Below, in pieces: positions 30,021-34,758 of a stretch of DNA of 64,000 bases. The position numbers were made by a program, and so were the translations under genes. The stretch's first letter is position 1. Every line of letters starts with the position of its first letter. This stretch comes from Podarcis cretensis (taxonomy: Eukaryota): assembly GCA_951804945.1 (NCBI GenBank), contig OX638160.1, positions 22,630,001 to 22,694,000 on the forward strand, in the 5' to 3' direction. The notes below the pieces were generated by a model, which saw nothing but the letters and a program-made list of their open reading frames with translations, was not told the origin of the DNA and searched no databases.

Positions 30021-31471
30021 AGGCATACCTTGCTTTATTTCTCTCTGCATATATTGCTCTTTACAAGGAAGCAGCAGCAGGCTACTTTAATGCACTTCTT
30101 TTACAAAAGAAAGTAACCCCCCCCCCCACCATCACCTAGCCTGCATAATCCCAACTTTTTAAACTATTAGTCAACTGCTATCTGCATTAAAACGTCCTCC
30201 AGTGTTCCTAATCACATGCTAATGAAAGTAGGGGAAAATCAGCTGAACACTTCTCTTTTAGCCCATGTAATAACAAACAAACACAACCCACATTTGTTTC
30301 AACAGGAAGGCTTTTTTGTTTTGTTTTGTTATTTTGTTTTGGGAAATACTTTCCCAGAATTCAAAGACGCCAACAGACATTCCAGCTGCAAAGGTAGAAC
30401 TTTACACAACTTAATTACCCTCCATTTTCCTTGCGGGCTACAGAGAAAAATGTGCTCAGAAGTGCATCAACCTGCAATACCCCAGTAATTCAGCGTTATG
30501 TTTAATGAAATGATTTATGAACCTGTCTGCTACTGCCCTCTATTGGACTGATGCCTGTTCTCCTTCAATGTCTGACAGGGACTGGGAGTAGATCCCAACT
30601 TCCCAACCTTCAGAATACATAAGAAATTCCCTTTACTCTCTTTGTTAACCAAGCTGTCTCATGGCATTTTATAAAAGTTAAGTCCCCGCTCCAATCTGTT
30701 GTTTCCCCTGACTGGGTTACTTAGTGTAACAACCAACTCCCAGAATTTCGGTCACATAAGGCTAGATACTCTCTCAAAAGCAGCAAGGAAGAGGGACCAC
30801 TCCAGCTTTAAAGTAGGGAATTTCAGGGACACAGCAAGCAGTGACAGGCAGTATCCCGTGGGCACAACAGTGTCTACCCTTGTAAAAAGGACTCTGCTAG
30901 CTTGCCTCAGTGAGTTGACATTTTATATTGAACATGCAGTCCAAAAAACCCCCAAGGGTGTGGGGGTAGAAGTAATAAAACTGCAAAAGTAATAAAAACA
31001 AAAAAGTAACAAACTGCATCTTCTTCATTCAATTTTATTTTTTAATAAATAAGACCTTTCCCTGCTTGTATATTCAAAAAGTCTTCATGAACTTCCCTCT
31101 AAAGGTCAACAAGCTCTAGTTTCATTTCAGCAGTAAGGACTCACAGATTGCCTGATATCCAGCTCAGCTGCTGCTGTGGAGAACTGGGGGAGAGGAAGGA
31201 GACAATCCCCTCAGGGATTAAGGCTTGACCTAATGCAGGTCTTTCAAAAAAGCTAGCCGCCATCTTGATTTTTGTCAACAGAAACCCAAAGTATGGTCCC
31301 TTAAACCTCAGGCAGGGCCTATACTGGTTATCATTTCATGGTAGCCATCAAGCTCAGCTACTGGCACGGTTCCAAACTCAAACCTAACCAGGCCCAAACC
31401 TGTGCTGGTCCCGGGGGAAAGGTACCGTGATCGTAGTCAGAGTTCACGAGATGGGAGGCGAGGTCCGAAAC

Positions 31472-31676
31472 AGGGAGCCGGGCGGGGAACAGGAACGCTG
31501 GGAGGTCAGAAGCAGAAGGCTGGGCAGGGAACAGGAACGCTGGAAGGTCAGAAGCTGGGAGCCGGGCGGGAACAGGAGTGCTGGAAGATCAGAAGCAGGA
31601 GGCCAGGCAGGGAACAGGAACGCTGGAAGGTCAGGAACAGGAGGCCGAGCAGGGAACAGGAACACTGGAAGGTCTG
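31472..31676. repeat. ~42-bp tandem repeat, 5 copies, inside the LTR
   Basis: Unit GGGAACAGGAACGCTGGAAGGTCAGAAGCAGGAGGCC(G/A)GGCA. Confidence 0.85.
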
Positions 31677-31736
31677 AAGCCAACAACGACGTTGCTCCCG
31701 CAACCTGGGACCGGGCTGACTGACCTTTATCTTCTT

Positions 31737-32087
31737 CTAAGGCCAGGGGCGGTCCCGGCCCCCAGGAGCCCCGCCTCCTCTGGCCTTAAGGCGAGCACTC
31801 CTCCTGGGAGCAACCAGTTCCCTTCGCCTCTCTGCCCTAAGCCTCTGTAGTTCAGGAGAGGCCGAAGGGTTACTGGGCCCCGGAGGAGGCTCACCTGTAG
31901 CCACTGAGTCCTCAAGCACCTCTGGGGCCAGAAGGGTTTCACCTGGTGCCTGCTCTTGAGAATCTGACACAGGTGCAGGCTCCTCAGAATCTAGGCCTTG
32001 CCCCAGTTCAGCCGGCCCTGGAGGCGGGGACTCCTGTGCAGGCCGGGATTCCTCTGGTTCAGCCTCTGAATCGGAATCCCAGGCCAT
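31737..32087 (-). CDS. Putative LTR-encoded 116-aa acidic/Pro-rich protein with basic RRSARL tail
   Basis: ATG at nt 5 of the LTR (GTGATGG), open to TAG just before the TATA-like box; polarised composition. Expression unproven. Confidence 0.4.
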   Translation of the reverse strand: MAWDSDSEAEPEESRPAQESPPPGPAELGQGLDSEEPAPVSDSQEQAPGETLLAPEVLEDSVATGEPPPGPSNPSASPELQRLRAERRRELVAPRRSARLKARGGGAPGGRDRPWP

Positions 32088-34758
32088 CACAAAACCACTG
32101 AGACATGAAAACAACAGCATAAAGTATGCAAACTACTGGCTCTTCCATTGACATGTAAGGAAGGGGTGGAAAGAGGCGAAGAAAAAGCAGGAAGAAATGG
32201 GGGCATCTGGACATGGGTGGCAAGAGGTTTTCAATCATAAGACACAATGGGCTTGACAAGCTATTTGTACGTATGTAGATGTAATAAAAAGTTCCAATAA
32301 CTGGCAAGTACAGGGTTCAAATGGGAAAAATTGTTCATATATGTCATAACAGTCCACCCAACAGCTGCAAAATCCTCAGATTCTGAGTTTCCACTTAATA
32401 CTTTCAAGCAGTGGGTGAGCTTTTCCAGAATAACAATGTGTAATATTTTCTTAAGCCAACTGTCCACTGTGACATTCAAGACATTGTTCCAATTCTTAGC
32501 AGTTTCAAGTTAGGCAGTCACCTACGAGTAAATAGCCAGAGGCTTCAACACAAAAGGTTGGCCCCTTTGAAAATAGACAGCAAACACAAGGCAAGGTCCA
32601 CATGTGCAATCTTACAAAAGAATACTGCAGACCACAAGGGATGAGCTACTGGGAAGGAACCCAAAGATACTCATATGTCCCAATGGGGCCACAATTCTGC
32701 AAGCAAAGCCTGTTGCCTGTTTCCTGAATGTGTGCCATTTTGACTGGACTGTAAAACCACCTGGGGATGGATTTCATAGAATTCTCCCTGATAGTAGCGG
32801 ATGAAGAGGGGGAACTGTTTGAAGCCCAATCCTGTTTGTTCTCACAGTGTCCAACCAGATGCCTAGGGGACATCTGCAAGGAAAACCTGAGTACAACAAC
32901 ATTCATCCTACTGGGGATTCCCAGCAACTGGAATTCAGAGGCCTCTGATAGTGGAAGTTGAACATGACTATTATGGGTAGAAGCCAGTGCTCTGAACCAT
33001 ATCTGGATCCTGCCAAATCATAGGGGACATGGCCATAAAGGGTTAGGCAGGTGCCTACACCAAACTGAGTCACCTTCTCACTACTCAGGCTATTAGAAAG
33101 GGAAGCATTATCACATATCCTTTGTGTGTGTTCTTGCCCTTTAATTGATATTGCACACATATCATTCATTTTAAAGTCCTCTTGGTATATCCTGTTGTCC
33201 AAGCTGCGGAGCTAACCTAAGTGTTTGCATTCAGTGTCTTCCTTTGTTAGTTACTGTGGTTCTGTGCTGGCTGACATTGAAAACATACAACATAAGAGCT
33301 GATAATGCAAGAGCAATTTTGATTGGCAATGAGTTTGTCCTCGTGTAGTTCCTCATTGCTCCATGCTCCTTTCCCATCTTTCTTCATTTGCTTCTGAGAT
33401 ATGTGGCTACATATCCGTCCTAGTGACACACAACAGAAGCTGCCTACAGAATGACAAAAAAGATCCATGGAATGTATGGCTGATATGCAGGAAAGCCTTC
33501 AATCTGGCAAAGTCTTCATACAAATTAGGTAAAAGAATGTAGAAAACAGATGCTCCTCCACAGAAGCAGCCAAGAACTTCTAATATCCTGACAACTTGTT
33601 AATCAACAAACATATGGTACCACTTTAGCAAAACAAACCATCCGGACCACTCTGTTTACATGGTCTTTTCCTATAAAAGTATTTTCCAGACTTAGCCATG
33701 GACGGGGAATAAAATTACAGTTATTTTTCATCCGCATATTAATGTAAACTACTCATTAACTACAAATCAAATAGAGCCCAATACATCAGCAGTTCACAAT
33801 TTTAGGCAGTAACAAGGGGCAAAGGAGAGAGACAGACAAATTTAGCGAAATTACTCCATAATAAATGGTTCATGACGGCGGTCATCTTCTATAAATTCTC
33901 TCTTTAATTGGGATTTCTACAAGGCATAAATGGAACTGACAAAAATAGAATTCTTTCCATCTGGGAAAATCCTATGAATCTTTAAAAACACAAAATAGTT
34001 GTGGCACCTGAAGGCACAAAGGGGAGCTGGTTGTGTCATACCAATTAAGCACTAAGAGCACTAAGTGGCAGGAATCTATTCTTATATGGATGAAAAATCA
34101 GTGAAAACAGACAACAAAGTGGCTTGTCATGTATTTTCAGTGCTATCATCTATTTTCTCCAGCAAAGTTCCACCACATTATAGCCAGAAAAGGTAGATCT
34201 AGCTGGGCAAAATATTTGACATAAGGTACATGATTTGTTAATTTCAAATAGTGATTCCTAAATACCAGTGTCAGTACTAAGGTGTTTGTGATCTCCAGAA
34301 GACCCCAGAAACAGCATCTGGAAAGACCAAGACCAGAAGCAAAGATGTGATTGCAGAAACCAGTCTTCCTCCTTAACTTTTAAACATTTAGTTTCAGCTG
34401 GAAGGGAAGAGAAGTGAAAGCAGTTAAGCTAGGAGACATATGAGCCGCACCAGACCCCAAAATAGGAGGAGTGTCCAAAGATGGGGCAGGAGGCAAAAGT
34501 CACAAGCATGAAGCTACAGGAGAATTATGATGCTGTCCAAGTTAATAGGGGAAGGAAATCATTATGAGAACAAACTCACACTGTGGTTTCAGATCCTAGT
34601 TTGATGCCCCCAAGTAAACTATTGTTGGTTGCCCAAACTGGGTTTGCATATAGAAACCAACTATAGTTAAGCAAAACAAACCATGTGTTTGTGTTCCTTC
34701 TGAACCAATCCAATGAGTCAGATGCAACCAATTATGCCAAGGGCTAAATACTAGGCCA

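Follow-up and report, generated by a model that had tools for sequence, protein, structure and literature searches.

We found that the 116-codon open frame in a solo LTR of the lizard Podarcis cretensis encodes the C-terminal tail that the integrase of a Tf1/sushi-type chromovirus takes from the 3' LTR. Between subfamilies this tail is under purifying selection, which is strongest in the putative helix before an RRSARL motif. Our main reading, to which we give a probability of roughly 0.5, is that the tail is a selected integrase C-terminus in the 3' LTR and that the RRSARL at its end likely fastens the integration complex to the nucleosome's acidic patch.

The solo LTR and its open frame

In the window, by which we mean the whole stretch of 64,000 nucleotides that was analysed, the element is present as a solo LTR alone and the rest of it is absent. 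The features of this insertion are as follows.

31401..32091, minus strand: solo LTR of 691 bp with TG..CA ends, Tf1/sushi-type chromovirus, young subfamily A
32092..32096, no strand: target-site duplication on the element's 5' side, identical to the 5 bases at 31396-31400
31396..31400, no strand: target-site duplication on the element's 3' side, 5 bases
31737..32087, minus strand: the part of the integrase C-terminal tail that the LTR encodes, 116 codons and a stop, in frame with pol
31860..32087, minus strand: acidic Pro/Ser-rich linker, residues 1-76, likely disordered going by its composition
31815..31859, minus strand: conserved charged stretch SPELQRLRAERRREL, likely a helix going by its sequence
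31788..31805, minus strand: RRSARL, HMGN-like motif, residues 95-100, with copy counts for subfamilies A, B and D below
31724..31731, minus strand: TATA-like box GATAAA, LTR base 361, 8 bases past the stop of the frame
31691..31701, minus strand: self-primer, LTR bases 391-401, pairing with the primer-binding site in the folded RNA
31461..31680, no strand: 42-bp tandem repeat in R/U5, 5.3 copies, with a copy number that differs among LTRs

The solo LTR, its duplication, the 116-aa frame and RRSARL are all real, as confirmed here. The original prediction had described an LTR with TG..CA ends and a 5-bp duplication, holding an ORF that begins with an acid-rich stretch at LTR nt 5 and ends just before a TATA-like box, and each of these points was borne out. 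On the minus strand (32091-31401) the LTR starts with TGTG and finishes with CACA, with the duplication on both sides. The frame is open from the LTR edge (32090), its ATG is at LTR base 5 and its stop at LTR base 353, ahead of GATAAA at base 361, and the first 79 residues include 19 D/E and 1 basic residue. The TATA-like box is 30 bases from the self-primer, a spacing that is identical in the sister subfamilies, and we infer that the self-primer marks the 5' end of the element's RNA. Neither of the polyadenylation signals AATAAA and ATTAAA occurs anywhere across the whole LTR. Elsewhere in the window, the minus strand has an exon-like frame at 1415-1807 with no Pfam match, whose resemblance we take to be to vertebrate KIAA1217. 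If it is an exon of that gene, the LTR may lie in a same-strand intron.

Copies of the LTR in the genome

All 40 of the full-length LTR matches that were scored in the animal's own genome, out of 1735 candidates, are 95-100% identical. Thirty LTR copies were fetched, of which 24 have a 5-bp duplication and 27 have an intact ATG-started 116-codon frame. The integrity of the ORF, which the original prediction had proposed as a check, is thus seen in most close copies, but it reflects their youth because these copies are 98-99% alike. Between the 5' and 3' LTRs of the same element the divergence is 0.5-1.3% for five A copies and 5.5% for one B copy. Nearly identical tail proteins (82-91%) are found in Podarcis muralis and P. 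lilfordi, and the listed copies of the element are spread over many contigs. Some LTR copies have multiplied together with their flank, as in the segmental duplication of one motif-less insertion (one contig, 2.0-3.8 Mb). A separate motif-less lineage was considered and rejected: the four motif-less LTRs on this contig have a common flank and are therefore duplicates of one insertion. A second pair of LTR copies is likewise one insertion duplicated with its flank.

Link to pol and class of the element

Copies that carry pol have a 3' LTR to which the window LTR is 98% identical. A polypurine tract precedes 2 of the 30 LTR copies and the element's leader follows 2, and in both copies with the tract the integrase and chromodomain run in frame across it into the LTR frame. 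This is what the original prediction had offered as its alternative, namely that the frame could be the C-terminal tail of pol or integrase entering the 3' LTR, and the search it had suggested for full-length elements with pol crossing the tract was successful. Among pol-linked copies 17/36 are in frame with the tail, more than in any other single state (16 of them have one and the same offset), while in 19/36 a shift of 1-2 bases in the G run of the polypurine tract cuts the tail off. The shifted copies of subfamily A have no common branch but are dispersed over a star-like tree, which is what per-copy slippage or assembly error would produce, but in one weakly supported older branch the G run is shifted in 5/5 members. 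Slippage in replication, change after insertion and assembly error are indistinguishable as sources of this length variation. Open frames of more than 1,200 codons hold stop-free matches in 3 of the 150 matches listed, and the same tail, 91% identical, ends an automatically made UniRef model of 1240 aa from Podarcis muralis.

The Pfam order in the element is gag, zinc knuckle, protease, RT, RNase H, integrase core, Tf2-type SH3 and chromodomain. The chromodomain (PF00385, E 3e-14) lies behind SH3_Tf2-1, and the zf-CCHC match in gag has an E-value of 6e-4, which is just under the cut-off. The aromatic cage Y-W-Y of the chromodomain is intact (EYEV...IDWKGY), and it is by such a cage of Y, W and Y that group I chromodomains are defined in PMC3605345. 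The end of gag overlaps the start of pol, which is in another frame, and a G-GGA-AAC heptamer stands ahead of the gag stop, a pattern that suggests -1 gag-pol frameshifting. In the fold of one copy, the primer-binding site forms an 11-base duplex with the RNA's own 5' end, the arrangement of self-priming, and the genome holds 46 LTR-PBS junctions as compared to 0 for the reversed control. The element fits the Tf1/sushi group, judged on the features that bioRxiv 10.1101/2022.12.06.519325 describes for it (chromodomain, self-priming, CCHC gag and a -1 gag-pol frameshift). The LTR frame itself matched 0 Pfam families at E up to 1, gave no usable match in the ESM Atlas and no match to the HMGN family profile, and its last 42 residues have no relative among solved structures; it is part of pol, not a host gene.

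Selection on the tail

We compared real copies pairwise (30 A, 17 B and 30 older D) and subtracted the within-group diversity. The net dN/dS of the flagged frame is 0.31 for A-B, which was aligned as DNA (95% bootstrap 0.12-0.78), 0.23 for A-D, where the blocks come from a protein alignment and may favour this frame (0.10-0.38), and 0.31 for B-D. In the two other same-strand frames it is 1.07-3.36. The antisense frame that has third codon positions in common with the flagged one gives 0.30-0.43, which we read as a shadow of the latter. By part, residues 72-103 have a dN/dS of 0.08-0.16 and the linker 0.40-0.62, and when pol-linked copies are compared (18 from A, 14 from B), the value is 0.07 for the SH3 region, 0.15 for the chromodomain and 0.31 for the tail. 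Within the charged stretch, 8 of the 12 codons of PELQRLRAERRR differ silently between A and D and 1 differs by replacement, and silent variants of this stretch are also found in contigs from four other organisms.

In length, the linker differs among subfamilies by whole codons. The distance from the LTR edge to the motif falls into classes of 286, 316, 349 and 352 bases, every one of which is in frame, and the motif is in frame with the LTR edge in 99/108 LTRs, with 5 in a class one base short. The non-coding length control is uninformative, as the 42-bp repeat is a multiple of three. Given the dN/dS values and the in-frame length classes, the tail is a translated and constrained part of pol. 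The checks on dN/dS and frame-preserving indels that accompanied the original prediction therefore came out in support of a coding frame between subfamilies.

Conservation of RRSARL

RRSARL is kept in 28/30 A, 14/17 B and 13/30 older D copies, and most of the D copies that have lost it show CpG decay at the last arginine. The motif is constant while its neighbours vary (VAP to STR, K to R). When compared to the HMGN consensus RRSARLSA, the core matches and the next residues are K-A instead of S-A. Its six codons have 0 silent changes between A and D, against 13/25 in the other conserved codons, a contrast (Fisher p 0.028) for which the test was picked after seeing the data and which rests on 6 codons. 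In the contigs of four other organisms no silent variant of RRSARL exceeds 15%. The motif rarely arises at random: when the LTR was dinucleotide-shuffled 20,000 times, RRSxRL appeared in 220 of the shuffles and RRSARL in 13.

The original prediction had looked to conservation of RRSxRL in related LTRs. This holds for the three subfamilies and Podarcis, and fails in more distant lizard and snake chromoviruses. Other chromovirus families in the genome have chromodomains that are 32-56% identical, acidic linkers and basic ends, and judged by eye they also pass the purine tract into the presumed LTR; the tails of the more distant ones lack RRSARL. The proteins examined from Rhineura, Salvator, Crotalus, Vipera, Naja and Anolis have a chromodomain and an acidic stretch, with a basic end in four, and again lack RRSARL. 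It is absent too from 80/80 chromovirus loci, which are mostly fungal and many of which come from one sample series. Among the best 150 profile-search matches there were three motif carriers, two of lacertid type and one metagenome protein. The latter is an unrelated chromodomain protein (ENA contig, 2506 bases) that has an acidic linker and ends in PLRRSARLAAAH (PLRRSARL), possibly an independent case of the same design. A scan of viral contigs for relatives found none, and the metagenome contigs scanned with this single protein held no relatives.

In one large and young set of lizard chromoviruses the chromodomain is without the first and third cage residues, which makes it group II-like; chromodomains of group II are seen only in plants according to PMC3605345. 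The tails of this set end in a conserved motif of the RRRLGVKELLCWKKFRKRPLTDS type that apparently lies within the LTR and has a dN/dS of 0.05-0.14, and RRSARL is absent from them despite the conserved end motif. Degraded copies of further families have SPRSRR in the presumed LTR tail.

Discussion

Our findings suggest how the integrase tail would be made and what it might do. The pol frame crosses the polypurine tract without a break and ends 8 bases before the TATA-like box. The pol polyprotein would be made by a -1 frameshift from gag and would carry the tail. With U3 at the 3' end of the full-length RNA, the tail would be translated only as part of pol. The solo LTR of the window is a left-over copy of this pol coding stretch. 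The chromodomain with its Y-W-Y cage would recognise a histone tail that is methylated, and a flexible acidic stretch of about 100 residues would space the charged helix and RRSARL from it. As HMGN, Dsup and Dot5 do, the helix and RRSARL could then dock on the H2A-H2B acidic patch, and such a two-point grip on chromatin may help nuclear retention or target choice. By analogy with those proteins, we see an even chance that the RRSARL end tethers to the acidic patch.

The cryo-EM results reported in PMC12487698 have the R-R-x-x-R arginines of HMGN2 (RRSAR) and Dsup (PPRRSSRLT) binding the acidic patch, and the same paper reports AlphaFold 3 to misplace even HMGN2 on the nucleosome. Dot5 (RRSARIAT) requires R6, R7 and R10, according to PMC13347269. 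The tail has in common with these proteins the RRSARL core, or its three arginines, in a disordered setting. However, HMGN, Dsup and Dot5 are free chromosomal proteins, whereas the lizard motif is part of a retrotransposon integrase and is followed by K-A.

The readings that dispense with a pol tail fare poorly. The original prediction itself cautioned that an open frame may arise by chance in GC-rich LTR DNA, and for length this caution was justified, as an open stretch of at least 116 codons occurs in 14,935/20,000 dinucleotide shuffles of the LTR and an ATG-started one in 2,974/20,000. Because three in four shuffles hold such a stretch, the length of the frame is weak evidence and the case therefore rests on selection and the link to pol. 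A chance frame is refuted by the frame-specific dN/dS, and the in-frame pol link and whole-codon length changes also speak against it, so that we give it practically no credence. The stand-alone 'inverted HMGN' or transactivator, which the original prediction had the solo LTR making from its own ATG, is not upheld and we consider it very unlikely. The frame lies wholly in U3, its ATG being some 385 bases upstream of where transcription is inferred to start, and as it is upstream of both the TATA-like box and the self-primer, it would stay outside any RNA made from the promoter of a solo LTR. The ATG belongs to the LTR terminal sequence and is ATT or GTG in several copies. These points, together with a dN/dS of about 0.6-0.7 inside subfamilies, have to be set against the frame being intact in 27/30 close copies, against four gene models from Podarcis with their start at the ATG of the LTR and against the LTR reads in RNA runs of a relative. 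The gene models are possibly products of exonisation or annotation artefacts. The Podarcis model XP_077791897.1 starts at the LTR ATG and has a D-type tail with RRSARL followed by non-LTR sequence. The reads come from four raw runs of a related organism, with 38-128 reads per run of 10.5-12.8 million that are 90-99% alike, and show low transcription of relatives, not translation. In the two bulk RNA runs nearly all coverage of the internal region has the direction expected for sense RNA, and across the four raw runs there is no pile-up of RNA start sites near the frame. The RNA-seq check suggested at the outset thus turned up transcription of relatives but no starts near the ATG; among the runs listed as holders of the sequence, none is on record as RNA.

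Other readings accept a translated tail and differ on what the motif does. The basic end of the tail could be an NLS or a general DNA/RNA-binding patch, with the HMGN match being one of many arginine-rich solutions, which we regard as a serious though rather unlikely explanation. It would fit the distant squamate families examined, where an acidic linker and basic end come with differing motifs, and the one family pair whose end motif has a dN/dS of 0.05-0.14 yet is without RRSARL. Additionally, the strongest silent-change evidence is for the helix and not the hexamer, and PMC3605345 mentions the C-terminal NLS of Ty1 integrase and NLS-like motifs in beet chromovirus integrases. An NLS though has no need of the exact RRSAR spacing, which is kept amid changing flanks, and RRSARL arises in just 13/20,000 shuffles. 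The two roles do not exclude each other. Alternatively, the tail is translated and the helix matters, and the 18 bases of RRSARL are a U3 promoter or RNA element about 60 bases before the TATA-like box. A constraint on the DNA may apply because these bases show no silent change: the six codons are free of it across subfamilies with a dS near 1, and silent variants in the motif are also missing in the four other organisms. We nevertheless find this improbable, given that the test was picked with the data already in view and concerns 6 codons, that no stable hairpin forms over the motif and that the reading matches a known functional motif.

The preferred reading, an integrase tail that ends in an acidic-patch anchor, can be compared to several known systems. 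The Tf1/sushi chromoviruses (sushi-ichi, MAGGY; PEG10 relatives) likewise have a C-terminal integrase chromodomain, self-priming, a CCHC gag and overlapping gag and pol, but here pol runs about 117 codons into U3 past the chromodomain and has an HMGN-like end. In viruses, a short arginine anchor holds the complex on nucleosomes in KSHV LANA, foamy-virus Gag and CMV IE1. These tethers are on Gag or nuclear antigens, whereas the lizard motif is on the integrase, next to a chromodomain.

Plants offer another parallel. According to PMC3059260, pol of CRM group A extends into the 3' LTR and the LTR encodes the targeting domain, and according to PMC3605345 pol of the beet Bingo elements also extends into the 3' LTR. 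In this the lizard element resembles both. In CRM group A, however, the LTR-encoded CR motif replaces the chromodomain and priming is by tRNA-Met, while the lizard element has a self-priming site and a canonical chromodomain upstream of the polypurine tract, to which the LTR adds a second module. Chromodomain-guided integration is noted in PMC5053271. The extension of pol into the 3' LTR is already known in plant chromoviruses, and the HMGN-like ending behind a chromodomain would be the new part. Our literature search, made without most subscription papers and without repeat databases, found no published description of a chromodomain combined with an LTR-encoded HMGN-like motif.

More broadly, and with somewhat less than even confidence, we propose that the integrase of lacertid chromoviruses is a two-part chromatin reader, composed of a methyl-lysine chromodomain and an LTR-encoded arginine anchor of HMGN type, with U3 serving as a swappable cassette for targeting tails across squamates and slippage in the polypurine G run yielding a tail-less integrase. 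If true, no earlier integrase of a retrotransposon would have had an acidic-patch motif like that of HMGN, and the U3 cassette would be a vertebrate parallel to the plant CR motif. To our knowledge, the choice of insertion sites by vertebrate LTR retrotransposons is little studied, and the tail provides a testable candidate: a 45-residue peptide with a nucleosome-binding motif of known type, on an integrase with an intact chromodomain. The finding also serves as a warning that open frames in solo LTRs can be remnants of integrase tails and not new genes. That the U3 of squamate chromoviruses is protein-coding and under selection bears on the dating of insertions by their LTRs, as well as on gene models that start at the LTR ATG.
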